Shown here: positions 38,839-57,012 of the stretch, piece by piece
How the letters are laid out: each line of letters starts with the position of its first letter
Numbering within the stretch: position 1 is the stretch's first letter
IMG/VR virus record: IMGVR_UViG_3300028591_000075
Span: 160,001-224,000 of that record
Reading direction: 5' to 3' (one strand)
DNA from: a virus
Lineage: Duplodnaviria > Caudoviricetes
Length of the DNA stretch: 64,000 nucleotides
Made by a program: the position numbers and the translations under genes
Notes under the pieces: generated by a model
What the model was told of the DNA's origin: nothing
Databases searched by the model: none
Seen by the model: only the letters and a program-made list of their open reading frames with translations

Positions 38839-40056
38839 CTAAGTGCTCCGGTCTATCCAGTTGAGAGTCATGTCCCTAAAGTTCGAATTCGAGTGGATGG
38901 CAAAAGGAGTAGTCGAACTGTTGAAGTTGACTAGTGCCGACGGGTCGTTGAGCACAAGGAAGCCGAAGTATGTTGTCTTGCTGGAATCGAACGTACCGAG
39001 CTTCGTGGAGAACGGTCCGTATGCCTCGTGGTCCAAGGTACCGGACATGTCGCCGGCGGTCTGAGATGCGGTAAGCATGCCGTTGTACATGTCCGGGCAT
39101 AATATCCAAGTTGGACGGTATGATACGCTTCCACCCGTCGGCCATTTTCCTGTTCCTTGGAAGAATGCCGGGTAGTAGTACGTGGCTATGTTCTGTGTAC
39201 TGAAGTTGTTCGCCTTGTTCCAGATATTGCTCTTTCTCATGTTCACACCAGCGTAGTTTGATATGCTGCTGGTGGTAAATACATCGAGATTGTCCATCGT
39301 AGCGAAATCCGGACAGTTCGGGTCCGTTGTATCAATTAGCCAGCCAGCATTGTTGTACTTGACACAGCTGAGCTGTGTAGCCGGCGGAGCATAAGTGCCT
39401 CCCCACGATGTGGGTATTTGCGCTAGGTTGTCCGGGTCGTCGGCATCTGTGAATGCATCCGGGTGTACCGTGCAGTTAGGACAGGTCGTGCTGAACACAT
39501 TGTATCCGTACAGCGAAGATCCATCGGTAATACCAGTGCAACCGCTTACAAAGCCGCCCACGTTGGTCAATGCGGTGCTCCCCCTGAACCGGTCATAGAA
39601 TGTCTGGCTGATAGATGTGATGGCGGTACACATTTTGAAAGTTCTGTCGAGGTTCGTAATCCGGTCAATATCCCCCTCGATGTCCAGTACCTGGCATGTG
39701 CCTAGCGCACCGGAAAGGAGTTTTCCTGATTCCGGACTACGGTTACAAAAAAGCTGCCCCAGGCCTATTGAGTAGTCAACATCCGATACGCCGAACCGGT
39801 ACACCGGCGTAATTACCTTCCATACATGTGGATCGGACGTGGAAAGCCACTCGGCGCCTACAGATGGCGGGCGTGTGCCGAACTTACCCCTGGGGTTTAC
39901 GTTGGTACGGTCGAAGTAGAACGTGAGCAGAACATATGGCATGTCGTATATGAGCGTATCGCCATAATACAGCTTGGAAATGCGCTTGTTTCCATAGCGC
40001 ATTTCCTTCAGTCCGCCACTAGCACGACTTCCGTTGGTACCGAAGAATAGACTCAT
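38839..40056 (-). CDS. Putative fibre tip / receptor-binding protein with a truncated LRR-cap module
   Basis: N-terminal 'LKEMRYGNKRISKLYYGDTLIY' is a common fibre adaptor motif. 'GCTGITDGSSLYGY...NLAQIPTSWGG' resembles the cap modules of 18827. Confidence 0.55.
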   Translation of the reverse strand: MSLFFGTNGSRASGGLKEMRYGNKRISKLYYGDTLIYDMPYVLLTFYFDRTNVNPRGKFGTRPPSVGAEWLSTSDPHVWKVITPVYRFGVSDVDYSIGLGQLFCNRSPESGKLLSGALGTCQVLDIEGDIDRITNLDRTFKMCTAITSISQTFYDRFRGSTALTNVGGFVSGCTGITDGSSLYGYNVFSTTCPNCTVHPDAFTDADDPDNLAQIPTSWGGTYAPPATQLSCVKYNNAGWLIDTTDPNCPDFATMDNLDVFTTSSISNYAGVNMRKSNIWNKANNFSTQNIATYYYPAFFQGTGKWPTGGSVSYRPTWILCPDMYNGMLTASQTAGDMSGTLDHEAYGPFSTKLGTFDSSKTTYFGFLVLNDPSALVNFNSSTTPFAIHSNSNFRDMTLNWIDRST

Positions 40057-40472
40057 GTTAATGTTTCCGGAACTGCGTAGAAGGTGTGTGGGTCTCTTGT
40101 GGACGGGAGGGACGACACTACTATGATATTGACTGGCTTTTCGTAGTTGGAACTAGCCAGCGGAATAAGAACATCTGGCTTATTGGCTATGTATGAGTCC
40201 GCCGTCGTATCAGATTCATTCCAGTCTGATTGTACGTTTGCGTCGCCGGTATCGGTAAGGGCGACAGTGGTCGTGGTGGCCGGAGAAGTGGACTGGTCGG
40301 TCACGGTCAACGTAAGCGTCTTGTCGTTGTTGCTCAGGGCTGCGCCGGACACGTAGGTGGACGGGACCTTGTCTATGCTGTCGGCAATGTCTCTTCCTTT
40401 CTCATCCTTTCTTGCCCGCTCGGCAAATAATCTTCGACTATCGAAGCCTGTCCACAATGTATCATCCGCCAT
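40053..40472 (-). CDS. Short fibre/adaptor protein, paralog of 36976
   Basis: LWTGFDSRRLFAERARKDEKG versus LWTGFDQRKLAAERARCDWKG; also NVQSDWNE...YIANKP. Confidence 0.65.
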   Translation of the reverse strand: MADDTLWTGFDSRRLFAERARKDEKGRDIADSIDKVPSTYVSGAALSNNDKTLTLTVTDQSTSPATTTTVALTDTGDANVQSDWNESDTTADSYIANKPDVLIPLASSNYEKPVNIIVVSSLPSTRDPHTFYAVPETLT

Positions 40473-43676: not shown

Positions 43677-43703
43677 ACATATTCGCCATGTAAAATAAGG
43701 CTA

Positions 43704-43834
43704 TGTCCATCCAAAGTGTTGTTCCATGAAAAAATGCCTTGACATGCCAATGAATAAGTGCTATATTGTAATCTAGGTAGCGTCACGACCACTATATATC
43801 GTTCCAACATCCTTAGCAACACTTTGGGTGGACA
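43704..43834. repeat. 20-bp inverted repeat pair (43704-43723 / 43815-43834) flanking a promoter
   Basis: TGTCCATCCAAAGTGTTGTT versus AGCAACACTTTGGGTGGACA: 18/20 match, and both mismatches are G:U pairs on plus-strand RNA. Confidence 0.85.
43739..43767 (+). promoter_or_regulatory. Near-consensus sigma70 promoter
   Basis: TTGACA-N17-TATATT with extended -10 TG, and an A tract upstream. Confidence 0.8.
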
Positions 43835-43889
43835 ATACCTAAAATAATAAAACGCACATTTAATGCCCGGTTTATGACCGGGCATTGTT
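43774..43889 (+). ncRNA. Candidate ~115-nt small RNA
   Basis: ORF-free interval between the strong promoter and the hairpin at 43862-43886; 5' TAGGTA can pair with TACCTA (43836-43841). Confidence 0.35.
43862..43889 (+). terminator. Hairpin, probable terminator
   Basis: AATGCCCGGT-ttatg-ACCGGGCATT-GTT (weak U tract). Confidence 0.55.
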
Positions 43890-43968
43890 GCTAAATGGTG
43901 ATTATTTTGCTATATTCTCAATGCGACCGGTGTCGCTTTTGGTAAACTATTATTTACAGAGGAACCAC

Positions 43969-44169
43969 ATGGACCCGACTGTTGAGCAGATACTCAAAGT
44001 TTCAAAAGAAATCAGCATGTCTTCCAAGAGGGGGAAGCCCAATTTCATCTGGGCGACTGAGGAAACCCTTGGGGACATCCGGGACTATCTCGAGCGGGAG
44101 GAACACAAGAAGCGCTGCACCGAAATCGAAGAAAATTTGAACCGTTCCATCAAAAATGCTACAAAATAG
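43969..44169 (+). CDS. 66-aa protein containing a T4 gp23-type major capsid protein segment
   Basis: GAGGA RBS. 'EQILKVSKEISMSSKRGKPNFIWATEE' matches the gp23 motif 'QIxK...EI....RG..NFI.AS'. Confidence 0.65.
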   Translation: MDPTVEQILKVSKEISMSSKRGKPNFIWATEETLGDIRDYLEREEHKKRCTEIEENLNRSIKNATK

Positions 44170-44182
44170 CTATATTTGCAAT

Positions 44183-44884
44183 ATGTCAATCGAAATCATC
44201 AGAATTACCGAACATCCGCTTCAACTCATCGGCCAGTGCACCGGCGTATGCTGGGGCGCCCCGGTGAACGACCCGGAAAAGAACAAGAAACGCGCCATTT
44301 CCTGCATCAAGGCCAACCATGGCCGCGTGCTGGAATTTCCCGAATTCATCATCGTCATCGACGGCTACTCGGCCCGCATGATGCGCGAACTTTACACGCA
44401 CATCGGCGGTGGCCCCACCAGGCTGCAGTCCTCCACCCGCTACGTGAACGAGGGCGGGTTCAAATTCTACATGCCGGAAAGCTGCAAGGGGCATTCCGAA
44501 TACGACTCCACGATGGAGACCATCCAGGTGGCATACAGCGACCTTGTTGGGCTGATTGGCGTCCCCAAGGAAGATGCCGCGAACATCCTCCCCCTCGGCA
44601 TGGAGTCCAAGATGGTCTGGAAGGGCAACCTCCGCATGCTCATCAACTTCATGAACAGGCGTCTCTGCACCAGAGCGTTGAAGGAGATACGCGGATTTGC
44701 CAACGAATTCAAGAAACTGCTTGCATCGGTGGATGACGAATGGGCCTGGATTGCCGAGAACCTGTTCGTCCCGTCGTGCGAACAGTTCAAAATCCACAAC
44801 CCCGATCTGAAATTCTGTGTCGAGGAACACTGCTGCGGCAGGGCCCCCAGGATTTCTGAACTCAAAATCTCGAAGGAGAACTAA
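44183..44884 (+). CDS. thyX: FAD-dependent thymidylate synthase
   Basis: NHGRVLEF, SARMMRELYTH...QSSTRYV, GVPKEDAANILP, NLRMLINFMNRRLCTRALKEIR. Start reassigned to 44183. Confidence 0.9.
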   Translation: MSIEIIRITEHPLQLIGQCTGVCWGAPVNDPEKNKKRAISCIKANHGRVLEFPEFIIVIDGYSARMMRELYTHIGGGPTRLQSSTRYVNEGGFKFYMPESCKGHSEYDSTMETIQVAYSDLVGLIGVPKEDAANILPLGMESKMVWKGNLRMLINFMNRRLCTRALKEIRGFANEFKKLLASVDDEWAWIAENLFVPSCEQFKIHNPDLKFCVEEHCCGRAPRISELKISKEN

Positions 44885-44885
44885 A

Positions 44886-45185
44886 ATGAGCATCGAACGC
44901 GATATCGACAGTTCCGTGTACTCAATCCGCCATGCGGTGCAATCCATCAGGGATTCCATCGACACCAGTGAAATCGACAGCGACCTGGACTCGATTGAGA
45001 ACGAATGCGATGAGCTTTCCAACCTTGAAGAGGATGACCCGGATATCCTCGTTAGTAACGCCCTGGATGACATGGGGCTCGAAAATTTCGGGGAACAGTG
45101 GGGCCGTATCGATGTCGGCACCGCAAACGAACTGAGGGAAGCGGTAACCCGCATCCTTAAAGAACATGGATATTCCGTGGGGTAA
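44886..45185 (+). CDS. Acidic hypothetical protein
   Basis: AAGGAG RBS before ATG 44886; phage-typical codon usage. Confidence 0.6.
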   Translation: MSIERDIDSSVYSIRHAVQSIRDSIDTSEIDSDLDSIENECDELSNLEEDDPDILVSNALDDMGLENFGEQWGRIDVGTANELREAVTRILKEHGYSVG

Positions 45186-45187
45186 GT

Positions 45188-46177
45188 ATGTTTTGGAACC
45201 TATTCAAAAAGAAACCGGCACCGAAGCTGGAACAGGAAAAGAAGGACCTGGAACCACAGCGCATGCGCCTTGACGATTTCTGCAAGGACCGCGAAGGCTA
45301 TTTCACCGGAAACGGTCACCCGGCCAACACGGTCGGCTACTGCAAGATTCCGCTTATGTGGCCCTATTTCAATGGCTATACGGTCATCCCGGACGGGATG
45401 TACCCGGTTATCCGCGTTGATGGTCACTGCTTCCATACATTCACCAGGAAACTGAAGAAGCCGTTCGACCCGAACATGGTGAAGGCCATGTGCCAGGCGA
45501 CCAAGAAGCTCGTCGAGTTCTTCTCGGCATGCTACGGCTATACACAGTCCGATGAAATCACCATCGTCCTTCCGAAGAACTCGCAGGATTTCGGGCGCAA
45601 GACGCACAAGCTCGCATCGCTTGCTGCAGCCATCGCCACTGCCGAATTCATCAAGTACATGGAATTCTACATGGGCAAGAAGCTCACGAAGCTCCCCGTG
45701 TTCGATGGTCGCGCATTCGCCCTGATGAACGAGGAAGAACTCGGCTACTACCAGTGCTTCCGTCAACACGACGCTTGCCGCAACGCCATTTCGGCTGTCG
45801 CCAGGGCATACTATTCCCATAAGCAGCTCGAAAGCAAGAACTCGGATGACAAGGTTCAGATGCTTGCCGACAAGGGAGTCGATTTCTGGAAGGAATACTC
45901 CACCGCAGAAATCTTCGGCTACTATTTCAGGCGCAAGCTCTCCACCCGCAAGTTCACCAAGGCCGAAATAGAGAAGCTGCCTGAGCGCCACGAGGCCCGC
46001 ACGAACCCGGATCTCATGGTGGTCCGTTCCGAGATTTTGAAGTTCGACTTCAAGGTCGAATACAGGAACAGTACCTCGGCGGAGGAACTCACCGAGCAGA
46101 TGCTCAAACTTGTGACTAAGGACGAACTGCCCCAAAAGGAAGTTCCTAGCGAAACCGACAACACCGGGGACGAATAA
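45188..46177 (+). CDS. tRNA(His) guanylyltransferase Thg1-like protein (3'-5' polymerase)
   Basis: IRVDGHCFHTFT, YGYTQSDEI, FDGRAF and RQHDACRNAI motifs. Confidence 0.9.
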   Translation: MFWNLFKKKPAPKLEQEKKDLEPQRMRLDDFCKDREGYFTGNGHPANTVGYCKIPLMWPYFNGYTVIPDGMYPVIRVDGHCFHTFTRKLKKPFDPNMVKAMCQATKKLVEFFSACYGYTQSDEITIVLPKNSQDFGRKTHKLASLAAAIATAEFIKYMEFYMGKKLTKLPVFDGRAFALMNEEELGYYQCFRQHDACRNAISAVARAYYSHKQLESKNSDDKVQMLADKGVDFWKEYSTAEIFGYYFRRKLSTRKFTKAEIEKLPERHEARTNPDLMVVRSEILKFDFKVEYRNSTSAEELTEQMLKLVTKDELPQKEVPSETDNTGDE

Positions 46178-46983
46178 TGTCCAAGGAACTTAGCGCAGGT
46201 TTCATCATTTTCCAGAAGGGGAGCAACAGGCTCCTTGTTTCCCATCCTACCGGAAACCCGAAGGACGGGAAGCATTCCTGGGACATCCCGAAGGGCCATG
46301 TCGAGAATGGCGAGGACCCGCTCGAAGCGGCTCTACGTGAACTGTATGAGGAAACCGGACTTGAACATGTGGAAGATACTTTCGAGATAGGCAGGGTCCC
46401 TTACCGTTCGGATAAGGCTCTCCACCTGTTTAGCGCGTATGTCGATTTCGACATAGGCGACCTGCATTGCGACTCGAAGTTTACCGACAGCTACGGCGTG
46501 GAGAAGCCGGAGGTTGACAGGTATCAGCTTACAGACGACCCGGAACTGCTGTTCAGCAACATGTACTGGTATGCAACCAGGGAAATGCTCCGCAGGAAAC
46601 TCGCCTATGAAGTGACCATCCAAATCACCGATGACGATTTCCCCGACAAGACCTTCCCGTTGGCAAGCATCCTCAGCAACAACTCCATCTTGAAGTACCT
46701 GAACCGGGTGACCGAGGTGACCGAGAAGGGCTGGTGGAAGCCTAATGCCGAATACGATTTCACGATTACAAACGAGGAACTGTTCGGCCGCGGTTTCCAG
46801 GACGACTACCGCACCAACCACATGAAGACGACCAACGAGGAAGTCCATACCGGTCTCCTGTATGCACATCCGGTGGCCGACTTCCCAGGCAGCGCATTGG
46901 ATCCGAAATGCCGCAAGTTGTGGACCATGCACCCATTCCCGTTCGAGGACTGGGCGATGTTCCTTCCCGGTTCAGAGAGGTAG
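46177..46983 (+). CDS. Nudix hydrolase with an unknown C-terminal domain
   Basis: Nudix box WDIPKGHVENGEDPLEAALRELYEETGL. Confidence 0.9.
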   Translation: MSKELSAGFIIFQKGSNRLLVSHPTGNPKDGKHSWDIPKGHVENGEDPLEAALRELYEETGLEHVEDTFEIGRVPYRSDKALHLFSAYVDFDIGDLHCDSKFTDSYGVEKPEVDRYQLTDDPELLFSNMYWYATREMLRRKLAYEVTIQITDDDFPDKTFPLASILSNNSILKYLNRVTEVTEKGWWKPNAEYDFTITNEELFGRGFQDDYRTNHMKTTNEEVHTGLLYAHPVADFPGSALDPKCRKLWTMHPFPFEDWAMFLPGSER

Positions 46984-46986
46984 CAT

Positions 46987-47475
46987 ATGGAAAACGGATT
47001 GAAGCATGTCCTTGAACGCAAGGGCTGGATTAAGGATGAGCCGGAGATGGCCGACAAAAACGAGTACAAGGTGTACACCAGGTGCATCTTGCCACTTGAC
47101 ACGGTGAACCGCAACAACCGCAAGTTCAGCAAGGAAGTTGTCCAGAAGGCGATTGACAAGCTGAAAGGGCAGCCAGTTCCTTGCAGACTAAATATGCCAA
47201 GGGTGGAACACCCGGAACGTATGTTTGAGGTTGACTGGCAGGATATCCAGGGATTTGCCGACCTTTCCATCAAGGACAACCGCCTGATGGCGGAAATGCG
47301 TATCCTGAAAGACAGTGACTTTGGCAAGATCATCTGCCAGGGTCTGGATGATGGAACAATGGTACCCGCCCCGTTTGGCACCGGCGATGCGAATGTGAGC
47401 GACAATGTGGAAGAAATTTCAAATTATACGCTTACCGGCATCGGAATTATTGACAAGAACCGCTCGATTTGGTAA
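46987..47475 (+). CDS. T4 gp21-like prohead protease paralog, probably inactive
   Basis: 'VNRNNRKFSKEVVQKAI', 'EHP', 'MAEMRIL..SDFGKII' follow the gp21/S77 pattern, but the (G)VSSRGxG motif reads VPAPFGTG. Confidence 0.6.
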   Translation: MENGLKHVLERKGWIKDEPEMADKNEYKVYTRCILPLDTVNRNNRKFSKEVVQKAIDKLKGQPVPCRLNMPRVEHPERMFEVDWQDIQGFADLSIKDNRLMAEMRILKDSDFGKIICQGLDDGTMVPAPFGTGDANVSDNVEEISNYTLTGIGIIDKNRSIW

Positions 47476-47484
47476 ATTTCCGAT

Positions 47485-47811
47485 ATGCGTTTATCTGTTC
47501 AGAAAGCCGATAAGTTATTGGATAAAGTGCTGCTCGGGTGCATTGCCACCGTGGGCAGCCTTATGGGGCTATGCATCCTATATACGATTCTTGGTACTAT
47601 CTACGTTAACCTGCCCGAATTCGTAATTGGCGCCTTAAAGACCATTGGCGTATCGGCTGTTGTGATATTGATTGCTGTACTATGTTTCAAGTTTTCGGCA
47701 GTTCGGATAATCACAAAGGGCGTCTTGGCCATCGTGGGGGTGACCGGCACCGTTTACATAATTTACTGCCTGGTGCTGTTTGCATTGGACGGAGGGTTTG
47801 CAATCAAATGA
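47485..47811 (+). CDS. Small membrane protein (3 TM)
   Basis: Three hydrophobic stretches; ATGA overlap with the next gene. Confidence 0.6.
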   Translation: MRLSVQKADKLLDKVLLGCIATVGSLMGLCILYTILGTIYVNLPEFVIGALKTIGVSAVVILIAVLCFKFSAVRIITKGVLAIVGVTGTVYIIYCLVLFALDGGFAIK

Positions 47812-48635
47812 AGGCTCTGATTCTTTCTGACATTCACATCGATTTCCAGTATGAGTATGCCATCTTCCCGGTGAAGGATGACTACACTGACGAAGAATGC
47901 TTACAGTCGTTCAACCGCTGGTGGGACATGATGCAGTTCCCCGAGGCCGACGTGCTCCTGAGTGCCGGCGACTTTTCCAACGACTACCGCACGTTCCAGC
48001 AGTTCATGAAGTTCATTTCCGGAAAGTACAAGGACGTTTATATCGTACTCGGCAACCATGACCTCGTGGTCAAGGGTGCCACCCCGTCCAAGTCCAATCA
48101 GGAATTCAAGACATCCGAGGACAAGATTGCCGCCATGCGGGCCTTCCTGGAGAAGAAGTGTCCAAATGTGCACCTACTCGAAGGCGACACGCTGAACGGC
48201 ATCGCCGGGTGCATGGGCATGTGCAAGTTGGTGCCTACTGACCATCTACGCTGGAAGCGCCACTGGTTCGACGGTGTGCACTGGAAGTACATGGACATGC
48301 AGCCGGAGACCATCTGGAACCATTACCGCGAAACGATGAACAATCTCATCGCCACGCAGCCGAAGGTCATGATGACACACTATGCACCCTATGAGATGGG
48401 TGTCGCGTTCGAGTACCGTCTGGACAGGAATACCCCGTTCTTCTACTTTGACGGAAAGGAATTCCTGGAGCAGATGCCGGACGACTCCTACTGGATTTGC
48501 GGCCATGTCCACAACGTGTTCTCCACCGAATACACCAAGGAAAACGGTGGCATTGTCCATATCCGCGCCAACCCACACGGCTATCCGGGTGAACGGTCCT
48601 ATAACCGCATGAAGGATTTTGTAATCGAACTATAA
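47808..48635 (+). CDS. Calcineurin-like metallophosphoesterase
   Basis: SDIH, AGD, GNHD, THYAP and GHVH motifs; start reassigned to 47808. Confidence 0.9.
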   Translation: MKALILSDIHIDFQYEYAIFPVKDDYTDEECLQSFNRWWDMMQFPEADVLLSAGDFSNDYRTFQQFMKFISGKYKDVYIVLGNHDLVVKGATPSKSNQEFKTSEDKIAAMRAFLEKKCPNVHLLEGDTLNGIAGCMGMCKLVPTDHLRWKRHWFDGVHWKYMDMQPETIWNHYRETMNNLIATQPKVMMTHYAPYEMGVAFEYRLDRNTPFFYFDGKEFLEQMPDDSYWICGHVHNVFSTEYTKENGGIVHIRANPHGYPGERSYNRMKDFVIEL

Positions 48636-48645
48636 AGGAAAGCTA

Positions 48646-49761
48646 ATGAATTATCAGTACATTCACAATCCACTCGGCATGGCCGGTCTCTACATCTCCT
48701 ACGGGCACGTTGGCGCCGTCAGCGAGAAGGCCGGCAAGTATGGTACCTCGCACCTCATGGAACACATGATTTGCAAGAACACGGACTCCATGCGAGACAA
48801 GTTGCAGGAGAACGGCATCTTTTCCAACGCCTTTACTGGCACCGACAAGGTGGTCGTACACGTGACCGGCCTCGCCGACCGCATGAAGATGTTCATGCAG
48901 GAATTTGTCGAAAAGCTCATCGGACCCATTGACGCTATCACCGAGGAACAGTTCCTGAACGAACGTCGGACCGTCCTCAACGAATATGGCGACAACTTCA
49001 TCGATCCTGCTCAGGTTGCCCTGTACAATGCGATGCGCAAGCATTTCGGTTGCTATTTGGCCATTGGCCGCGAAGAAGACATCAAGGCGTTCACCTTCGA
49101 TGATTACAAGCAGTCCTACAATGAAGTCTTCAACAAGCCGGACAGCATCATCTATATCGGTCCCGAAGATCCGCACCTGGCCATTCCGGTGTATCCGTCA
49201 GTTAAAGGCCTCCCGAACACCTACAAGTACACCGAAAACTCAGGTGAAGCGCTTGTCCCGGTTACCGAAAACGGTCGTTCCCAGTTCATTATCTTCCCGA
49301 AGGAACCGGTGGATACCTTGCATGCTGCATCTGCCGCTATCGCATTCAAGATGCTCGCGTCCGGCCTCAATTCCCCTCTGAACATGGAAGCCCGCGAAAA
49401 TCGCGGTCTCACCTATGGTGTCGGCGGTTTCATCAACTCCGTCGGGACAACCTATATCCCGACCATCTTCACCAGTACGGAAGTCGAAACGAAGAATGAA
49501 CTCCTCGATGTCATGATGGACGTATTCGGAAACCTTGACAAGTACCTTACCGAGGAACGTTTCAATACCGTCAAGGGAATGGTTATGGCCAAGAAGCAGA
49601 AGCATTCCATTCTTCTTTACGACAACCCGGATGCCCCGATCAAACAGGCCCTTGGCTTCATTGACGAGGATAAGGGCGTTGAATCTCTCACCTTCGACAT
49701 GGCCATGCGTGCGGCGAAGAAATACTTCTCCCCGGATGCACTCGGCGTATATGTCGAATAA
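48646..49761 (+). CDS. M16 (insulinase) family metallopeptidase
   Basis: GTSHLMEHM (HxxEH), NAFT, ERRTVLNE and RENRGLTY motifs. Confidence 0.9.
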   Translation: MNYQYIHNPLGMAGLYISYGHVGAVSEKAGKYGTSHLMEHMICKNTDSMRDKLQENGIFSNAFTGTDKVVVHVTGLADRMKMFMQEFVEKLIGPIDAITEEQFLNERRTVLNEYGDNFIDPAQVALYNAMRKHFGCYLAIGREEDIKAFTFDDYKQSYNEVFNKPDSIIYIGPEDPHLAIPVYPSVKGLPNTYKYTENSGEALVPVTENGRSQFIIFPKEPVDTLHAASAAIAFKMLASGLNSPLNMEARENRGLTYGVGGFINSVGTTYIPTIFTSTEVETKNELLDVMMDVFGNLDKYLTEERFNTVKGMVMAKKQKHSILLYDNPDAPIKQALGFIDEDKGVESLTFDMAMRAAKKYFSPDALGVYVE

Positions 49762-49777
49762 CCCATAGGAGTCAAAT

Positions 49778-50071
49778 ATGACTAGCGAAGAAATCAAGCA
49801 GAATGGTGACCTTCTCCTGAAGGCCATCAACGAAGCGGATGCCGCCTACGAGGCATTCCGCGTGGCCAAGGCCAAGAAGTTCCTTGACCAGGCCTGTCCC
49901 CTCAATCCGCCCGCCGGCTACAAGAAGCCGACGGAAGCAACCATTCTCGCCACCATTGACGCTGACGAGAACATTGCCCGTCTCCGCGTGGAAGCCGACA
50001 AGAAGGCCGCTATCGCAAGCGTTGCCAAGTTGGTGTTCCAGGCTGAAACCGCGGCGATGAACGCAAAGTAG
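49778..50071 (+). CDS. Helical hypothetical protein (weakly UvsY-like)
   Basis: AGGAG RBS; 'KKPTEATILATIDADENI' pattern. Confidence 0.5.
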   Translation: MTSEEIKQNGDLLLKAINEADAAYEAFRVAKAKKFLDQACPLNPPAGYKKPTEATILATIDADENIARLRVEADKKAAIASVAKLVFQAETAAMNAK

Positions 50072-50078
50072 GTAGCCC

Positions 50079-50744
50079 ATGTATTTTCTGAATGCCCGGA
50101 ATGTTCCCGAGTTTGCCATGTACGCGACAAGGAAGGAGGCAGAAATTGCCAAGATTCCTCTTGCCGGCGGGCCGGCGATTTCTCAACGTTTCCTCACGAA
50201 ACCGGAACTGCTGGAGAAGTTCCCCTTCATCCGGCATGTCGATTGCGAGAAGACGACGGACTGGGAGCATCCGGTATTCAGTGAAACGGGGACCTTCCTC
50301 GACTGCATACCCAACGGGTGGCAGAAACCATGGTTCATGGAAACCATGCTCATGTCCTTGAAGGCTGCCATCCAGGCGGACGGAATGGACATGGATAGGA
50401 TCTACATGACCGATGCCAAGGAGAAGTACGGTTCGCTCCGCATGGACTTCTCGACACCGGTTACCGAGGGCCATGCGTTCTCGGATATGTGCCTCGCCTG
50501 GGAGGAACTTGCCGGCTATTTCTGCTGCATGTGCGGCAAGCCGCATGTCTCCATTTCCAGGGGATGGATTTGCCCGTACTGCAAGGATTGCTGGGACGGC
50601 ATAAACGGCCCGTTCACCGAGGCGCCATTGGAAAACCCCAAGATTAGCACCTGGGAAAACGGCGAGAGGGTTGAACGAGTTATCGACCTGAAACCACTTT
50701 TTGACAAGGTGGTCAGTGCCTGGGAGGACACAAATGTTAAGTAA
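50079..50744 (+). CDS. Conserved phage protein with a KEKYGxLR motif and a C4 Zn ribbon
   Basis: IPNGW...AKEKYGSLR...CCMCGKP...GWICPYCKDC. Confidence 0.65.
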   Translation: MYFLNARNVPEFAMYATRKEAEIAKIPLAGGPAISQRFLTKPELLEKFPFIRHVDCEKTTDWEHPVFSETGTFLDCIPNGWQKPWFMETMLMSLKAAIQADGMDMDRIYMTDAKEKYGSLRMDFSTPVTEGHAFSDMCLAWEELAGYFCCMCGKPHVSISRGWICPYCKDCWDGINGPFTEAPLENPKISTWENGERVERVIDLKPLFDKVVSAWEDTNVK

Positions 50745-50988
50745 ACTTTACATTGTTTTGGCACTCGCGATTGCCGGTTTCCTGGCAGGCTGCAGCAGCA
50801 ACGTGGAACACTGGGAAGACCACGAGCGCATAGTCGAGATTGTCGATATCGACGGCGATTTCAGAATCTATTGCGACAAGACTACCAACATGGCCTACCT
50901 GTTCTATGTCGCGGGCCACAGGTCCGCAATCACGTCCTATCTCAATGCCGACGGCAACCCGGCCCGGTGCAACGAGGTTAGACGATAA
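50734..50988 (+). CDS. Small lipoprotein
   Basis: Signal peptide with LAGC lipobox; start reassigned to 50734. Confidence 0.7.
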   Translation: MLSKLYIVLALAIAGFLAGCSSNVEHWEDHERIVEIVDIDGDFRIYCDKTTNMAYLFYVAGHRSAITSYLNADGNPARCNEVRR

Positions 50989-50997
50989 ACTGCGGGC

Positions 50998-52140
50998 ATG
51001 AGTAAATCACCTAACAAATGGATAAATTGCGCCATCCCAGGGGTGGCGTTAACTACATGTATCGGATCCGTCTACTGCTGGTCGCAGTTCTCGGCGAACC
51101 TGATGCAGACATTTAACATTACCCGGTTCCAGACGGACATCGGGTTCACCCTGATTATCTTCTTCCTGGGCATGTGTGCGGCGATTTTCGGTAGCACTAT
51201 CGAGAAGAACCCGCGCCTCGGTGCCTGGCTCTCCACCATCATCTTCATCACGGGCTTCCTGATGCTCGGTACCGCTGTCACCATACAGTGCTTGCCGGCC
51301 TTCTATATTGCCACGGCAATCATAGGCGCCGGTACGGGTATCGGTTACGTCACACCCGTAAAGACCCTCATGGCCTTCTTTGCCGACCATAAGGGGATGG
51401 CGTCCGGACTGGCGATTACCGGCTTCGGACTGGCAAAGTTCATCGCTTCCCCGGTTATCGAGTGGCTGCTTGCCACCGTGTCCTTGGCGAACATGTTCTA
51501 CATCATGGGTGGAATATATGCCGCGGTGATGGTGGGGTCGTCCCTGCTTCTCCGCAAGTACCCATACATGGCACAGGAATACGGCAGTTCGGACTTCCGG
51601 TACGGGGACCTGCTGAAACGCAAGGAATGGTGGGCAATCTGGTTCATGTTCATGACCAACATTAGCTGCGGCCTGGCCATCATTTCCCAGGAGAAGATGT
51701 TGCTTCTCGGTTTGGGAATAGCCTCCGTCGCGGCAATCCTCTCGGGAACCGCGTTGTCCAATGCGGGTGGCCGTATCGGCTTCTCGACCCTCAGTGACAA
51801 GATCGGGCGCAAGGCCAGCTACCACTTCGTATGTTCCTTCGGCATCATGGGTGCCCTGTTCTGCATCACGGGCAACCCGGTCATGAGCGTCATTGGTATC
51901 CTCCTGTGCGAGGCTGCCTACGGTGGCAATTTCAGTGTCCTCCCGAGCCTTCTTGCACGCAGGTTCGGGATGACCAACGCCTCCCGCATACACTCGCTCA
52001 CGCTTACCGGATGGAGCGTAGGCGGCATCTTCGGACCCCTGCTTGCCAATACGTTCACGGGCACATCACTATACCTGGTACTCGCCATCCTGTACTTCAT
52101 CGCGTTTTCCGTGATGGAGATGAATGTAAAGAAAGGTTAA
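50998..52140 (+). CDS. MFS transporter, oxalate:formate antiporter (OFA) family
   Basis: About 12 TM helices; GSVYCWS, GIGYVTPVKTLMAFFADHKGMASGLAITGFG, GRIGFSTLSDKIGR and YGGNFSVLPSLL motifs. Confidence 0.85.
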   Translation: MSKSPNKWINCAIPGVALTTCIGSVYCWSQFSANLMQTFNITRFQTDIGFTLIIFFLGMCAAIFGSTIEKNPRLGAWLSTIIFITGFLMLGTAVTIQCLPAFYIATAIIGAGTGIGYVTPVKTLMAFFADHKGMASGLAITGFGLAKFIASPVIEWLLATVSLANMFYIMGGIYAAVMVGSSLLLRKYPYMAQEYGSSDFRYGDLLKRKEWWAIWFMFMTNISCGLAIISQEKMLLLGLGIASVAAILSGTALSNAGGRIGFSTLSDKIGRKASYHFVCSFGIMGALFCITGNPVMSVIGILLCEAAYGGNFSVLPSLLARRFGMTNASRIHSLTLTGWSVGGIFGPLLANTFTGTSLYLVLAILYFIAFSVMEMNVKKG

Positions 52141-52162
52141 ATAATTATCCTGTGCGCATTTG

Positions 52163-52191
52163 GAGCCCGGTTGCCATTGGCACCGGGCTTT
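52163..52191 (+). terminator. Hairpin/terminator adjoining the next promoter
   Basis: GAGCCCGGT-t-GCC-att-GGC-ACCGGGCTT-T. Confidence 0.6.
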
Positions 52192-52205
52192 GCTACATTT
52201 GGGAC

Positions 52206-53420
52206 ATGGCAAAGAAGACACAATATCTAGTATCCGGTTCGGCCTACACTCCTGTAGGCGATTTGAGAAATGTGACAAGCAGCCTGGAACCCGCTGTTTA
52301 TGAAATCAAGAGCGAAGCCTTCCGAGGCACGTTCCTGCAAATCCGTGAAAACGTGGACACTTCCGTCCCCGCCAAGATTTATGGTCGCATCCCTGGGATG
52401 CTCGCCAAGACCTTCCGTACCTTCGAGCGTCGCGACAAGAGCACCGGCGTACTCCTCTCCGGCGAACGCGGCATGGGCAAGTCCATGTTCGCCCGTCTGG
52501 CCGTTTCCGAGGCGTTGAAGCGCAGGATCCCGGTAGTCCTCCTCACCGGTAGCTGCGGCGTGGACGATGCAGTGGAAATCATCAACCAGATTACCCAGCC
52601 GATTGTCGTGGTCATGGACGAGTTCGAGAAGAACTTCCCCATGGAGGCGGATGACAACGACGATGACGAAAAGAAGGGTAAGCAGCAGAAATTCCTGTCC
52701 ATGCTCGACGGCATGGGCTCGTCCGAAAAGCGCCTGTTCATCGCCACGGTGAACGACACTTCCGACCTGAGCACGTTCTTCCTGAACCGTCCCGGACGCT
52801 TCTTCTACCATTTCGAGTTCAACACTCTCACCCACGAGGAAATGCGCGAGTACCTCGAAGGCGAATGCGACCGCAAGATTGTCAAGAAGAAGACCATCGA
52901 CTACGCGGTGGCCTGCATGGGGACGTATGCCATCAACTATGACGGCATTGCCGCCATCGTGGAGGAACTGAACAGCGGTTCCCCCATCGAGGAGGCGCTT
53001 ACCGACCTCAACCTTGACCGCAAGGGTGACGATGCGTACGTGTTCAGCATCCGCATAAACGGCGCCGAATACACCTGCGAGAAGTGGTCCAGTCTGAACG
53101 ACATCCGCGAGGAAACCAGCCGTGCCGAATACTTCTACCTCAAGGAGGGGGTGCATGGCAATGTGGGCCGCATCGGCAAGTCCGACATTCCAGGTTCCAC
53201 GCTCATTATCCGGTATGACGGTACCGGCATGAAGCTGAACAAGGACGGTGTCGCGGTAATCCCGCGCAGTGCAATCCGCTCCATCGACCTGGACGACTGC
53301 TTTATTAAGAAGGGACGTACCGAGGTCAAGAAGGTTAGACCTGACGAACTGGGCAGCGTTGGCGACATCGTGCTCAACCCGATCAAGAGTGGTCCAAGGG
53401 CACTCTACCTGGATGTCTAA
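52206..53420 (+). CDS. AAA+ ATPase
   Basis: Walker A GERGMGKS, Walker B VVVMDEFEK, FLSMLDG and NRPGRF. Start reassigned to 52206 (TGcTACATT + 6 nt). Confidence 0.9.
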   Translation: MAKKTQYLVSGSAYTPVGDLRNVTSSLEPAVYEIKSEAFRGTFLQIRENVDTSVPAKIYGRIPGMLAKTFRTFERRDKSTGVLLSGERGMGKSMFARLAVSEALKRRIPVVLLTGSCGVDDAVEIINQITQPIVVVMDEFEKNFPMEADDNDDDEKKGKQQKFLSMLDGMGSSEKRLFIATVNDTSDLSTFFLNRPGRFFYHFEFNTLTHEEMREYLEGECDRKIVKKKTIDYAVACMGTYAINYDGIAAIVEELNSGSPIEEALTDLNLDRKGDDAYVFSIRINGAEYTCEKWSSLNDIREETSRAEYFYLKEGVHGNVGRIGKSDIPGSTLIIRYDGTGMKLNKDGVAVIPRSAIRSIDLDDCFIKKGRTEVKKVRPDELGSVGDIVLNPIKSGPRALYLDV

Positions 53421-53513
53421 TTCAGATGAGGTGGATAAAAGAGTGACCGCGTCAATAAGGCAATCTGACAGGTAAGAATTCTCCAGCTTTTCTTTAACCG
53501 ACTTTAGAATATA

Positions 53514-54494
53514 ATGACCAAGAACCGCAATTTACGCGAAGCGAAGACTGCCAAGAACGACGAGTTCTACACCAGTTATAGCGACGTATCCAAAGAGATG
53601 AAGGCGCTGTTCGAACGCGACCCCGGCTTTTTCACCAACCGCACCGTTTTGTGCCCGTGCAACGACCTTGAACATCCGGGGTTTCGTGACTTCTTCATCG
53701 ACAACTTCCAGACTCTGGGTATCCGCAGGCTCACCTGTACCAGCTATGCCCCTGGCCATTGCGGCCACGCGGAGACGGTTACCCTCAACCGTGGCGGTTA
53801 CCTCAATGTTGTCCGCTGGGTGCTGGATGGCGACGGGGACTTCCGTTCCCCGGAAATCACGAAGTTCATGCAGCACTCCGACCTGGTCGTGACCAACCCC
53901 CCTTTCAGCTGTTTCCGGGAATTCGTGGACTGGGCGGACGGCGCCGGCAAGGACTTCTATATAATCGGAAACAAGAACTGTGTCAACTACAACGAGGTGT
54001 TCCGCAAGATGCGTTCCGGCAGGATCCAGCTTGGCATCACTTCCCCGGACGAGTTCGAGACGACGGAAGGCAATACCAAGAAGGTCACCGGTCTTTGTAG
54101 GTGGTACACGACCATGTCTGTTCCCCGGAAGGAAGGCGAACGCGGTATCTATCTGAAGGCTACCTACGATCCGGCGAAATACCCTACGTTCGAAAATTTC
54201 GACGCGATTAACATCGACAGAGTTTCTGACATCCCGAAGGACTACTACGGGGTGATGGGTGTCCCGATTACGTTCTTCGACCATTTCGATCCGAAGCAGT
54301 TTGAGGTTCTTGGCCGGAGCGGGGACACAGTATGGGTATTCAATGAGTGCAAGTTCTTTACGCCCCCACCGGAGGAACGCCAGAAGGCGTACAAGGCCTA
54401 CTACAAGAACTGGCGGGTACAGAACAGCTATCTGCTCGACGAGAACGGGATGCCGAAGTGTATCTATTACAGAGTTTTCGTAAGGAGGAAATGA
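53514..54494 (+). CDS. Adenine-specific DNA methyltransferase, EcoRI-methylase family
   Basis: AKNDEFYT, GDGDFRSPE, VVTNPPFS and GVMGVPITF motifs. Confidence 0.88.
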   Translation: MTKNRNLREAKTAKNDEFYTSYSDVSKEMKALFERDPGFFTNRTVLCPCNDLEHPGFRDFFIDNFQTLGIRRLTCTSYAPGHCGHAETVTLNRGGYLNVVRWVLDGDGDFRSPEITKFMQHSDLVVTNPPFSCFREFVDWADGAGKDFYIIGNKNCVNYNEVFRKMRSGRIQLGITSPDEFETTEGNTKKVTGLCRWYTTMSVPRKEGERGIYLKATYDPAKYPTFENFDAINIDRVSDIPKDYYGVMGVPITFFDHFDPKQFEVLGRSGDTVWVFNECKFFTPPPEERQKAYKAYYKNWRVQNSYLLDENGMPKCIYYRVFVRRK

Positions 54495-54495
54495 T

Positions 54496-54521
54496 GGGGC
54501 GGAGAAAATTCGCCCCGTTTT
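54496..54521 (+). terminator. Intrinsic terminator
   Basis: GGGGCGGA-gaaaa-TTCGCCCC-GTTTT. Confidence 0.7.
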
Positions 54522-54563
54522 CCGTTTTTACCTACAAAGAATAAAATAAATTACTATATTTAT

Positions 54564-54589
54564 TCCAGAGTTATTAACTCCAGAGTTAA
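54564..54589. promoter_or_regulatory. Operator-like repeat downstream of a TATATT -10 element
   Basis: Direct repeat TCCAGAGTTA x2 and nested inverted repeat TTAACTC-ca-GAGTTAA. Confidence 0.4.
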
Positions 54590-54600
54590 AAGGACCTCCC

Positions 54601-55191
54601 ATGAAGAATTTGATACTGGTCATTGGCCGTTCAGGCTCCGGCAAGGACACCCTTGTCCGCTACGCGACAAACGCATTGAAAGATTTCCACAAGATTGTAT
54701 CGGTGCCATCCTATACGGACAGGCCCATCAGGCCAACCGAGACCCAAGGAGTAGAACATACATTCCTTACCGGGGAAGAATTCGACGACGTGCTGAAGCA
54801 TGAGACCATATTCGCCTACACGAAGATAGGCGAAACCGGCTACAGGTACTGTTCCACGGTGGAAATGCTTGAACGCCTTGACGGCGACACCATCTTCTAT
54901 GTAATCGACCCGAACGGCTACGATTACTGTTCCAATTTCAAGGACAGGTTCAACATGAAGGTGGTCTATATCCGGACATCCGGCAACATCAGGGAACAGA
55001 GGGCCAATGTGCGCAACGGTGACAATTTTACCTGGAAGAAGCGCAGTGCGGACGAGGATGAACAGTTCACCCGGTTCGAAGAATTGGCTCCCTGGGATGC
55101 CTGCATTTCCAACGACGGTGCCCTCGTAACTGCCGAAAACGCCTTCGTACACGCAATCAGCGACTTTCTGAACGGGGCCAAGAATGGATAA
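54601..55191 (+). CDS. gmk: Guanylate kinase-like nucleotide kinase
   Basis: GRSGSGKDT, SYTDRPIRPTETQGVEHTF and YVIDPNG motifs. Confidence 0.8.
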   Translation: MKNLILVIGRSGSGKDTLVRYATNALKDFHKIVSVPSYTDRPIRPTETQGVEHTFLTGEEFDDVLKHETIFAYTKIGETGYRYCSTVEMLERLDGDTIFYVIDPNGYDYCSNFKDRFNMKVVYIRTSGNIREQRANVRNGDNFTWKKRSADEDEQFTRFEELAPWDACISNDGALVTAENAFVHAISDFLNGAKNG

Positions 55192-56089
55192 GCCGAACAT
55201 GACTGTTCTCCGGGGAGTGAACCCGCGCAAGAGCGACTATACGACCTTCATGTTCCGTGGTGACTGTCTCGAACACCTGAAAGTCCTGGATGACGCATCG
55301 GTCGATATGATCCTCTGTGACCTCCCGTATGGTGTCACCCATAATCCCCATGACAAGAGGTTGCCCTTTGAACCGCTTTGGAAGGAGTACGAGCGCGTCA
55401 TCAAGGACAACGGGGCGATAGTCCTTTTCGCCCAGGGCCTGTTCTATGTGGACCTTGTGGCATCCAATCGCAAGCTGTTCCGGTATGACCTGGTATGGGA
55501 CAAGGTGCTAACTACCGGGTTCCTGAATGCCAAAAAGATGCCGCTGCGGCAGCATGAGCAGATTGCGGTGTTCTACAAGCAGCTCCCGACCTACAATCCA
55601 CAGTTCCATGAGGGAAAGCCCTTGCATGGGCGCGGGAACGCCTACAAGACCAAGGACCTCGTGAACAACAACTACGGGGACTTCAAGGCGACCGATGACG
55701 TTCGGAAGGGCAGCACCCAGAAGTACCCTACCTCGATTGTCAAGATTAACAAGCCGCACCCGTCCGCAAGCAACCACAGGACCGAGAAGCCAATCCCGCT
55801 CCTGGAATACCTCATCAGGACCTTCACCAATCCGGGTGAAGTCGTGATGGACAACTGCATGGGCGCCGGTGGCTGCGGTGTGGCCGCGTTGCATACCGGA
55901 CGCCGTTTCGTGGGTATGGAAATCGACAATGAATACTATGACATTGCCGAAGATCGCATCTTTAAGGCCCATTCCGGGGATATAGACATTCATTACGATG
56001 TGAAGGTGGTGGGACATACCTCAGTGGATGCATTCAACGTAAAGGTGGAGGTTTCCGATGGAAAACTCAAAACAGAACAAGTTCAGTGA
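55184..56089 (+). CDS. N4/N6 DNA methyltransferase (beta class)
   Basis: GDCLE, ILCDLPYG, HRTEKP and VMDNCMGAGGCG motifs. Confidence 0.9.
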   Translation: MDKPNMTVLRGVNPRKSDYTTFMFRGDCLEHLKVLDDASVDMILCDLPYGVTHNPHDKRLPFEPLWKEYERVIKDNGAIVLFAQGLFYVDLVASNRKLFRYDLVWDKVLTTGFLNAKKMPLRQHEQIAVFYKQLPTYNPQFHEGKPLHGRGNAYKTKDLVNNNYGDFKATDDVRKGSTQKYPTSIVKINKPHPSASNHRTEKPIPLLEYLIRTFTNPGEVVMDNCMGAGGCGVAALHTGRRFVGMEIDNEYYDIAEDRIFKAHSGDIDIHYDVKVVGHTSVDAFNVKVEVSDGKLKTEQVQ

Positions 56090-56327
56090 TGTGGACATCA
56101 AAATTTACTCGGACTTCTATGCCGACCCCAATTACGTCCTCGTAGGATACAAGGGCAAGTCTGTTGAGGCACCGGGTGTATTCTATATTCCGTACAAGAA
56201 GCCGAATATCTTCGTGCGCCTTTTCAGGAAAATCTTCGAAAGGTTCAGACATACATCGGAAGCGGTGCCGTTAAGCACGGATTCCAATGGATGGACCCTA
56301 TATTCCTCTAACGGGGGAATGGAATGA
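56058..56327 (+). CDS. 89-aa protein containing a gp23-type major capsid segment plus an amphipathic helix
   Basis: GGAGG RBS. 'IKIYSDFYADPNYVLVGYKGKSVEAPGVFYIPY' matches the gp23 motif 'VY.D.YA..DY..VGYKG.....AG.(Y/F)Y.PY'. Confidence 0.7.
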   Translation: MENSKQNKFSDVDIKIYSDFYADPNYVLVGYKGKSVEAPGVFYIPYKKPNIFVRLFRKIFERFRHTSEAVPLSTDSNGWTLYSSNGGME

Positions 56328-56464
56328 AGGGGAACATAATTACGCCTCGGGGGATAATCGTCTCCCCGTACAGGAAGCCGAATGTTTTTGAATGCATACT
56401 GATGAAAATCAGGGGGCTTTTCGAAAGGCCGAAGAAGTTAAAAAACAAATGGAGTGCAGTATGA
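56324..56464 (+). CDS. 46-aa tandem paralog of 56058 (not in the ORF track)
   Basis: MKGNIITPRGIIVSPYRKPNVFECILMKIRGLFERPKKLKNKWSAV. ATGA overlaps at both ends; DNA CCGTACAGGAAGCCGAATGT versus CCGTACAAGAAGCCGAATAT in 56058. Confidence 0.7.
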   Translation: MKGNIITPRGIIVSPYRKPNVFECILMKIRGLFERPKKLKNKWSAV

Positions 56465-57012
56465 AGGATACCCTCATTGTGAACCTGTATGGAGGTCCGG
56501 GAACCGGAAAATCGACCGGTGCAGCCTATATCTTCTCTATGTTGAAGATGTCCGGTGTCGATGCCGAGTACGTGACCGAGTTTGCCAAGGACAAGGTGTG
56601 GGAAGGGAACCAGGAAGTTTTCAAGTGCCAGTTCTACATCACCGGGAAACAGGCGTACCGTATCGCACGGTGCTTTGGGAAGGTCGATGTAATCGTTACG
56701 GATTCGCCGATCCGCCTCGGGAAAATATATGCCGACATGATTGGGCGTACCCAGTTAGGTCTCGCGTGTATCGAGGATGCGGAGCAGTATGACGACCATT
56801 CTATCGACGTATTCTTGCGGCGTGTCAAGCCATATAATCCGAATGGCAGGAATCAGTCTGAAGAGGAAGCCTGGCAACTCGACCAAAAAATCAAGAGCGT
56901 CATTCCGATGCCGTACTATGAGTTTGACGGGGACATTGACGGGTACAAGAAAATTTACAACCTAATCATGCAGAAAATGTCGCCCAGGTTGCTAGAAAGG
57001 ACATCAAAGTGA
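56461..57012 (+). CDS. NadR/AAA_28-type P-loop NTPase/kinase
   Basis: VNLYGGPGTGKST, EFAKDKVWE, IVTDSP and GRNQSEEEA motifs; start reassigned to 56461. Confidence 0.8.
   Translation: MKDTLIVNLYGGPGTGKSTGAAYIFSMLKMSGVDAEYVTEFAKDKVWEGNQEVFKCQFYITGKQAYRIARCFGKVDVIVTDSPIRLGKIYADMIGRTQLGLACIEDAEQYDDHSIDVFLRRVKPYNPNGRNQSEEEAWQLDQKIKSVIPMPYYEFDGDIDGYKKIYNLIMQKMSPRLLERTSK

Follow-up and report, generated by a model that had tools for sequence, protein, structure and literature searches.

Conserved mini-genes, very probably derived from T4-type head genes, in an accessory operon of a huge rumen phage

Introduction

Why would a phage carry small pieces of its head proteins as separate genes, far from the genes that encode the head? 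The question is raised by a rightward operon of metabolic genes in the 64,000-nucleotide stretch of DNA analysed here (the window), bases 160001-224000 of the 253,312-bp linear IMG/VR virus record IMGVR_UViG_3300028591_000075, which CheckV estimates to be 67% complete. An earlier note on this DNA had proposed that four small genes of the operon are partial or degenerate copies of T4-type head proteins, three of them of the capsid protein gp23 and one of the prohead protease gp21, and that together they act early as decoys for host defences triggered by head proteins. These four mini-genes (window coordinates), and the real head genes of the same phage (genome coordinates), are:

43969-44169, forward strand: 66-residue mini-gene P0001, first gene of the rightward metabolic operon, with GAGGA 6 nucleotides before its ATG
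46987-47475, forward strand: 162-residue pseudo-protease gene P0002, with a predicted S77 (gp21) fold, between the NUDIX and metallophosphoesterase genes
56058-56327, forward strand: 89-residue mini-gene P0003, by alignment a C-terminal excerpt of a gp23-type capsid protein, overlapping the 3' end of a methylase gene by 32 nucleotides
56324-56464, forward strand: 46-residue mini-gene P0004, a partial tandem duplicate of about codons 32-62 of the 89-residue gene
Genome 20945-22516, reverse strand: real gp23-type capsid protein P0005, 523 residues, PF07068 at 216 bits
Genome 135972-136712, forward strand: real S77 protease P0006, 246 residues, PF03420 at 53.8 bits

The genes for the 89-, 46- and 162-residue proteins are very probably cut-down derivatives of T4-type head genes. 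They are accessory genes, lineage-specific to a clade of huge rumen phages. As to what the mini-gene products do, we tentatively propose, at a probability of roughly 0.3, that they act independently as competitive mimics of the proteins they resemble.

Results

A C-terminal capsid excerpt and its tandem copy

The 89-residue protein matches the Gp23 family of Pfam (PF07068) with 29.6 bits against a cut-off of 24.4, and with 27.7 bits in the genome scan, also above the curated cut-off; phrog_138 is matched with E = 1.7e-6. BLASTP aligns it to the phage's own capsid protein with 44% identity over 41 residues (E = 1e-9), and a hidden Markov model (HMM) of its family, run against the 4,393 six-frame open reading frames (ORFs) of the genome, matched the same capsid protein with E = 2.4e-9. 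Aligning the two families with hhalign gave a probability of 97% and E = 3e-11, and the gp23 segment claimed for this position is thus borne out.

A tblastn search of GenBank phages with this protein returned 2400 records, the matches listed being almost all annotated T4-like major capsid genes, and the best of them cover 81-93% of the query. Residues 14-85 align to residues 351-430 of the 443 in the capsid protein of Agrobacterium phage Atu_ph04 (41% identity over 82 residues, E = 8e-11), and residues 7-89 to 335-419 of the 435 in that of Rhizobium phage RHph_I1_18; almost the entire protein runs colinear with the C-terminal 80-90 residues of compact T4-type capsid proteins. The earlier note had described the gp23 pieces as fused to unrelated tails, which is wrong for this protein: in compact gp23-type proteins its tail aligns to the capsid C-terminus, and it is therefore a C-terminal excerpt, not a fusion. 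As judged from these alignments, the ORF corresponds to the final 85 or so residues of a gp23-type protein of the compact kind, less a short internal stretch.

Positions that are invariant in gp23 have been kept (IK.Y.D.YA...Y.LVGYKG...G...PY), while lineage-specific positions differ. The excerpt corresponds, colinearly, to the C-terminal strands of the A-domain and the next strand region of T4 gp23 and gp24 (PF07068; PDB 5VF3 and 6UZC); unlike gp23, it covers only about 85 of 440-520 residues, is without the N-arm, E-loop, spine helix and insertion domain, is encoded outside the head module, has an amphipathic helix in part of its tail and is predicted to have no confident fold. It does not contain the complete HK97 fold (N-arm, E-loop, P-domain spine helix and A-domain), and the Pfam match spans profile positions 289-323 of 376 only. 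Part of the tail is predicted to have been remodelled into the strongly amphipathic helix in the window lineage: residues 52-65 have a hydrophobic moment (muH) of 0.89, reached by none of 2000 shuffles, and a helix is predicted at residues 51-64.

The excerpt scores 40 bits against the resident capsid protein and 43 bits against distant alphaproteobacterial T4-like phages, to which its last 15 residues are also nearer than to the resident protein; a foreign origin of the gene is possible on these comparisons. Its family contains 75 clusters, of 67-99% identity and 71-102 residues, and an alignment of 18 diverse members has 21 invariant and 15 nearly invariant positions, the gp23-invariant residues among them. 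The tail of the type found in the relative L007 differs. Among longer proteins sharing words with the 89-residue protein none scored, a 40-residue match being unable to reach significance in that database. The ESM Atlas held no usable look-alikes of the 66- or 89-residue protein, and the family HMM found no tail motif shared with other proteins of the phage proteome. The same profile weakly matches a 248-residue ORF lying 6 kb from the capsid gene of a relative (G007:C1:101149-101220, E = 1.7e-4).

The 46-residue protein resembles residues 32-62 of the 89-residue protein (BLASTP E = 2e-6, family profile E = 2.5e-6). Its description as a further gp23 piece holds to the extent that it is a partial copy of the excerpt, but by itself it has no Pfam hit, and neither has the 66-residue protein. 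Common to the two paralogues are a PY.KPN motif and a basic stretch; the net charge of the 46-residue peptide is +9, and its amphipathicity is unremarkable, with 1093 of 2000 shuffles reaching its value. ATGA overlaps tie this ORF to both the 89-residue gene and the following gene for an AAA_28 nucleoside triphosphatase (NTPase). The copy is present in the window, in L008, in G008 and in L007, where the gene was not called; it is cleanly absent from L005 and L006, in which the 89-residue gene is ATGA-coupled straight to the AAA_28 gene.

A protease fold without its nucleophile

The 162-residue protein reaches 24.5 bits against PF03420, under the cut-off of 27, and matches phrog_207 with E = 1.2e-8; its family profile matches T4 gp21 (PDB 5JBL) with E = 1.3e-9. 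The AlphaFold 2 model has a mean predicted local distance difference test (pLDDT) score of 88 and a predicted template-modelling (TM) score (pTM) of 0.76. In a Foldseek search with this model the three chains of 5JBL came out best (E = 1.3e-6, TM-score 0.64, root-mean-square deviation 2.4 Å over 141 columns), followed by herpesvirus proteases. In all short family members the nucleophile Ser of the GxSxRG motif is replaced by Ala or Pro (VPAPFG in the window), whereas the real protease and a 302-residue relative, P0213, retain it; in the real protease, LNHP and GYSLRG can be aligned with T4 gp21. That the gene resembles gp21 and encodes a dead protease, as had been suggested, is thus upheld by both the predicted fold and the family-wide loss of the nucleophile.

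The placing of the catalytic His depends on the alignment: BLASTP pairs LNMP with the LNHP of the real protease, and the multiple alignment and profile pair EHP with GHP or NHP. The window protein and those nearest to it have EHP; L007, P0201, P0203 and P0205 are without the His, which is thus not conserved in the family. With 162 residues against 246, the C-terminal 85 or so residues of the real protease are missing, and the alignment stops at the last strand of the fold. Compared with gp21 (MEROPS S77, PF03420), the family shares the predicted fold, an N-terminal NRN.R and G.G after the position of the nucleophile; unlike gp21, it has added a family-specific N-terminal helix and is encoded among metabolic genes. 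The model thus predicts a compact gp21-type catalytic-domain fold with neither the nucleophile nor the C-terminal extension.

An exhaustive HMMER search of 1.84 billion representatives yielded only 21 relatives of this protein, mostly of 120-190 residues, and three distant ones sit among small hypothetical ORFs, outside head modules. The protein scores 27 bits against the phage's own protease and 45 bits (tblastn) against distant T4-like proteases. In the relative from runs X17 and X18 the stretch 47030-47807, which comprises the gene and the following 108-residue ORF, is replaced by 485 letters that fail to align at 88% identity, and the L007 and L009 orthologues are only 52-57% identical to that of the window; the slot looks as if it evolves fast or is swapped. 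Language-model look-alikes of the protein include YonD_N clusters (PF27290; score 0.96), this domain and DUF2213 being among the nearest known families, and the L007 orthologue has a faint precomputed PF27290 hit; the literature searched gives no function for YonD. The profile also weakly matches the N-terminus of a 181-residue ORF in another genome (G001:C1:335640-335780, E = 0.002).

A conserved 66-residue gene with a weaker link to the capsid

The 66-residue ORF is a real, conserved gene: its family comprises 134 protein clusters with identities of at least 77%, and almost every one is 66 residues long. The claim that it too is a gp23 segment fared less well. When its family is compared with the capsid family by hhalign, residues 5-37 align to residues 325-357 of the own capsid protein with P = 1.5e-4 and 51% probability; the score of 32.6 was reached in none of 300 column shuffles (null mean 12.9, maximum 22.5), and the T4 chain shares the pattern EI....RG..NFI.A with it. 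In each of the two reciprocal HMM searches it also ranked first among the ORFs below significance (E 1.3-2). However, BLASTP gave no alignment to the own capsid protein, Pfam found nothing in 17 members of the family, and tblastn against phages found nothing at E values up to 10. We lean slightly towards an origin from the helix-strand-helix of the capsid A-domain (own-capsid residues 325-357).

Profile searches against gp23 and gp21, which the earlier note had named as a check, were thus significant for two of the four proteins and left the 66-residue gene unproven. The capsid-family HMM, run against all six-frame ORFs of the phage genome, found only the real capsid protein and the 89-residue gene; the 66-residue ORF ranks third with E = 2, and the other matches are non-genic frames. 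A BLAST comparison of small with large ORFs of the genome brought up no other piece of a structural gene. In PHROGs, no resemblance to head proteins was seen for the small ORFs nearby (108, 97, 221, 95 and 122 residues). Another partial paralogue lies at 40053-40472 on the reverse strand of the window, where a 139-residue ORF resembles the N-terminal 90 residues of the 597-residue ORF at 36976-38769 on the opposite, forward strand (43% identity, E = 5e-7).

Distribution and selection

Metagenomes of sheep and cattle gut carry DNA near-identical to the window record, and contigs of relatives reach 400-474 kb; the source is therefore a huge uncultured rumen phage. Megablast of a 14.5-kb region against GenBank phages gave no match, i.e. 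there is no close cultured relative. The Jug phages were considered as its clade and rejected: their guanine-plus-cytosine (GC) content is 27-30%, against about 50% in the window phage. The protein collection and capsid-protein loci gave access to relatives (an IMG/VR pattern scan with the 89-residue protein found no loci), and the loci of six relatives were compared.

Gene order is the same in these six loci, with the 66-, 162- and 89-residue genes syntenic: the 66-residue gene in L007, L009 and L010, and the order of methylase and 89-residue gene in L005-L008. The mini-genes are thus not strain-specific, and their lengths and positions are kept across many relatives, although the 46-residue copy is missing in some. 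All four are absent from complete genomes of sister clades. The complete or near-complete genomes G001, G002, G003 and G006 have no counterpart of the 66-, 89- and 162-residue genes; the complete ones measure 419-422 kb and have direct terminal repeats. Their capsid proteins are 64-80% identical to that of the window phage, and only the real capsid protein and real protease are found there. The N6/N4 methylase of the operon is likewise absent from these four genomes. The mini-genes therefore belong to a clade-specific accessory region, and the locus is variable, with differences in copy number and cassettes among close relatives.

One of the sister genomes contains an excerpt of another kind. 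In G001 (422,150 bp, direct terminal repeats), which belongs to a clade without the mini-genes of the window, the last 94 residues of a 222-residue ORF (L121:967-1635, forward strand) resemble own-capsid residues 49-144, the N-terminal conserved, Gol-like block (E = 1e-10), and its first 128 or so residues are unrelated. Since this sister clade has grafted a different capsid excerpt onto another protein, excerpting of head proteins is recurrent.

The ratios of non-synonymous to synonymous substitution rates (dN/dS, pairwise Nei-Gojobori) were:

66-residue gene: 0.16-0.45 (one pair 0.95)
162-residue gene: 0.16-0.34
89-residue gene: 0.27-0.90 by pair, pooled 0.48, the same in core and tail
46-residue gene: 0.12-0.15
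Neighbouring genes: 0.04-0.19

By these estimates, which are below 1 for all four as the earlier note had expected, all the mini-genes are under selection, the 89-residue gene only weakly. On the whole, most of the outcomes that the earlier note had named as refuting its proposal did not arise. In L008 the 89-residue gene starts with GTG and differs at many positions that are invariant elsewhere, while the genes that flank it are 91-95% identical and its 46-residue neighbour is 93% identical to their counterparts. Because of this drift, and because L005 lacks the 46-residue copy, the comparison hints that the two paralogues are partly redundant. An RNA element, suggested by low synonymous divergence of the 89-residue gene, was dropped as a candidate; the effect was seen only against L007 and was inconsistent across pairs.

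The operon and its surroundings

The mini-genes lie within genome positions 203969-216464, 68-195 kb from the real head genes. As the earlier note had stated, they are remote from the head module and all four are intact, each with a Shine-Dalgarno-like site or an ATGA overlap. They are not accompanied by portal, scaffold and protease genes; the neighbours are ThyX, Thg1, NUDIX, methylases and kinases. The tight rightward operon contains, in order, the 66-residue ORF and genes for ThyX, a Thg1-like protein, a NUDIX protein, the 162-residue protein, a metallophosphoesterase, an M16 peptidase and a major facilitator superfamily (MFS) transporter, followed by those for an AAA ATPase, an EcoRI-type methylase, guanylate kinase and the N6/N4 methylase, the 89- and 46-residue ORFs and the AAA_28 gene. 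Features adjoining the mini-genes are:

43739-43767, forward strand: sigma-70-type promoter-like site 1, TTGACA-N17-TATATT, scan score 11/12
43888-43916, forward strand: sigma-70-type promoter-like site 2, TTGCTA-N17-TATATT, scan score 9/12
55184-56089, forward strand: N6/N4 DNA methylase gene, PF01555 E = 4.4e-25, its 3' end overlapping the start of the 89-residue gene
56461-57012, forward strand: AAA_28 NTPase gene, PF13521 E = 1e-10, ATGA-coupled to the 46-residue ORF

Both promoter-like sites precede the 66-residue gene, and the 253 kb contain only four sites of this strength. Two metatranscriptome runs from cattle rumen, both of one study, include long contigs of a relative, about 93% identical, that begin at positions corresponding to 43927 and 43934, 11-18 nucleotides past the second -10 hexamer. 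These contigs continue through the operon, and separate contigs span the 89- and 46-residue genes gap-free; the pseudo-protease slot is replaced there. As evidence for expression, these starts near the promoter-like sites are a weak hint.

An intergenic element at 43697-43839, with 20-bp inverted repeats around TTGACA-N17-TATATT, is found on several of the RNA-library contigs with different flanks, at a depth of 62-180 against 16-45 for contigs of the operon; the pattern suggests a unit that is repeated and possibly transcribed at a high level. Further along, the M16-type peptidase gene (48646-49761) has a diverged paralogue some 117 kb off, at about 91.3-92.6 kb of the genome, found by similarity of the antisense frames (E 1e-4 to 1e-6). 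The MFS transporter gene (50998-52140) is full-length (PF07690, E = 3e-27) and is kept in L005, L007, L008, L009 and L010. The EcoRI-type adenine methylase gene (53514-54494) forms a clean cassette: the relative in run X18 skips exactly 53424-54534 and has 39 other letters instead, and in L005, L007 and L010 the AAA ATPase or MFS gene is directly followed by that for guanylate kinase.

Discussion

In the explanation that we favour, each mini-gene product would act alone. Having kept the family-invariant contact residues of a head protein, but being unable to assemble into a shell or to cleave, it would bind the usual partner of that part of the head protein and so block or titrate the partner. 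The pseudo-protease may have as its partner a loop of a protease substrate, or else the real enzyme; candidates for the capsid excerpt are sensors, chaperones and neighbouring subunits of the capsid. We favour such mimicry because the retained residues are family-invariant, the pseudo-protease is well folded in its model, the locus is conflict-like and head proteins are sensed according to the literature. The clade-specific, cassette-rich operon around the genes, with its two DNA methylases and host-type promoter-like sites, suggests a conflict, either with host defences or with rival T4-like phages, more than it does a part in routine head assembly.

Capsid proteins trigger CapRel and Lit. 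Capsid proteins and protease activity are also sensed by the cyclic-oligonucleotide-based anti-phage signalling system (CBASS) and by Avs/STAND receptors (PMC12991175; bioRxiv 10.64898/2026.01.04.697583), prohead-protease activity being sensed by CBASS (PMC12991175). In the literature we found no description of capsid decoys or fragments, or of inactive prohead-protease paralogues, as phage genes of this sort, nor a published account of conserved stand-alone capsid excerpts or of a role for the short pseudo-protease family; the proteins themselves derive from known families. The bind-and-titrate logic proposed for the mini-genes is that of phage sponges and of engineered dominant-negative fragments. 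Phage sponges and mimics such as Ocr, Acb2 and Tad1/Tad2 are small, early, accessory proteins that bind or titrate and have no catalytic activity. Those known bind nucleotides or mimic DNA, and our literature search found none that is a fragment of the phage's own structural protein.

A short capsid stretch that acts on its own does exist in the Gol peptide of T4 gp23, which alone is an active ligand of the Lit protease of prophage e14. We take Gol to lie in the N-terminal part of gp23, and to switch the Lit defence on. Unlike Gol, which is N-terminal and activating, the excerpts in the window come from other capsid segments and are at most putative ligands of a defence. They map to own-capsid residues 325-357 and 394-475, whose counterparts in the mature T4 chain are positions 290-322 and 356-417, and hence lie outside the region that Lit senses; the relevance that the earlier note had seen in Gol does not extend to them.

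The different location from Gol is one of several points that weigh against mimicry. The mimics are candidates only, and the gp23 assignment of the 66-residue gene is unproven. The AlphaFold 2 model of the 89-residue protein, with a pLDDT of 42, has no confident fold of its own, and the gene is weakly constrained (dN/dS about 0.5), drifting at about 0.9 in L008. RNA-library contigs may contain DNA and say nothing on timing, so they prove no transcription. Finally, L005 has the 89-residue gene without the 46-residue copy and L008 has a conserved 46-residue gene beside a drifting 89-residue gene; selection may thus act on the basic segment that both share, not on the capsid-like strands.

The weak constraint on the 89-residue gene is what would be seen if the 89- and 46-residue ORFs were relics: a head-gene fragment landed in the operon, and its frame was kept for translational coupling while the peptide has little or no function. 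This reading, which applies less to the pseudo-protease, is one that we regard as possible, though not probable. The 32-nucleotide overlap and the ATGA overlaps indeed chain the methylase, 89-residue, 46-residue and AAA_28 genes together, dN/dS of the excerpt is the same in core and tail, the 46-residue ORF is dispensable in L005 and L006, and the low pLDDT also fits. Against it stand the 21 invariant and 15 nearly invariant positions of the 18-member alignment, gp23-invariant ones included, and a constant length over 75 clusters. The 46-residue gene has a dN/dS of 0.12-0.15, as low as that of its neighbours, and the direct coupling of AAA_28 to the 89-residue gene in L005 makes it unneeded as a spacer, yet it is conserved where present.

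The genes might instead serve the phage's own head assembly, which we consider unlikely. The pseudo-protease would pair with the real protease or restrain it until proheads form, and the capsid excerpt, by complementing a strand, would influence how the phage's own capsid protein folds or assembles. Ancestry, and for the protease the fold, is shared with the presumed targets. Herpesvirus-type proteases work as dimers, and by analogy a dead partner could regulate the real enzyme; because CBASS senses free protease activity (PMC12991175), such restraint would pay. Against this, the genes lie 68-195 kb from the head genes, amid genes for nucleotide metabolism and methylases, and sister clades with capsid proteins 64-80% identical and homologous proteases do without them, so head assembly needs none. 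The pseudo-protease, moreover, is no closer to its supposed partner (27 bits) than to distant T4-like proteases (45 bits by tblastn).

Alternatively, capsid ancestry may be irrelevant: the target of the 89- and 46-residue peptides would be a membrane, nucleic acid or the ribosome, on which they would act through their basic, partly amphipathic segment. The helix at residues 52-65 of the 89-residue protein (muH 0.89, 0 of 2000 shuffles), the +9 charge of the 46-residue peptide and the PY.KPN motif and basic stretch that the paralogues share are all consistent with such action. We think it quite improbable, as the 46-residue peptide is not notably amphipathic (1093 of 2000 shuffles), the L007-type tail differs, and the best conserved positions of the 89-residue protein are the gp23-invariant residues upstream of the helix.

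That the four make up a single, coordinated system of early decoys against head-protein-sensing defences, the full proposal of the earlier note, is very improbable: they co-occur in one sub-clade (window, L007 and G008) on the same 12.5-kb stretch, with host-type promoter-like sites before the first of them, but ordinary neighbours have the same clade distribution, unrelated genes lie between the four, they vary independently (presence of the 46-residue copy, replacement of the pseudo-protease slot in one relative, drift of the 89-residue gene in L008), and the homology of the 66-residue member is unproven. Nothing links the four functionally as one system, and the only trait they share, location in a clade-specific accessory region, is common to an ordinary neighbour, the N6/N4 methylase.

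Independent mimicry of head proteins, if correct, could be part of a wider pattern, in which huge T4-like phages repeatedly cut pieces from head proteins and deploy them as stand-alone antagonists of head-sensing immunity; we put this forward as a speculation that is rather unlikely to hold in full. A serine-less protease would shield sensors, such as the activation loops of the CD-NTases (cGAS/DncV-like nucleotidyltransferases) of CBASS, or silence free protease activity. The role of an excerpt from the capsid C-terminus would be to block a receptor that senses capsids or to poison the shells that rival phages build. Conserved copies under selection that neither assemble nor cleave are candidates for a class of counter-measure that has not been described, that of self-derived structural mimics. 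Even if the decoy idea fails, head-gene excerpts repeatedly become small accessory genes in huge phages, a little-noticed route of gene birth, and such excerpts would explain the spurious 'major capsid protein' annotations of such small ORFs.

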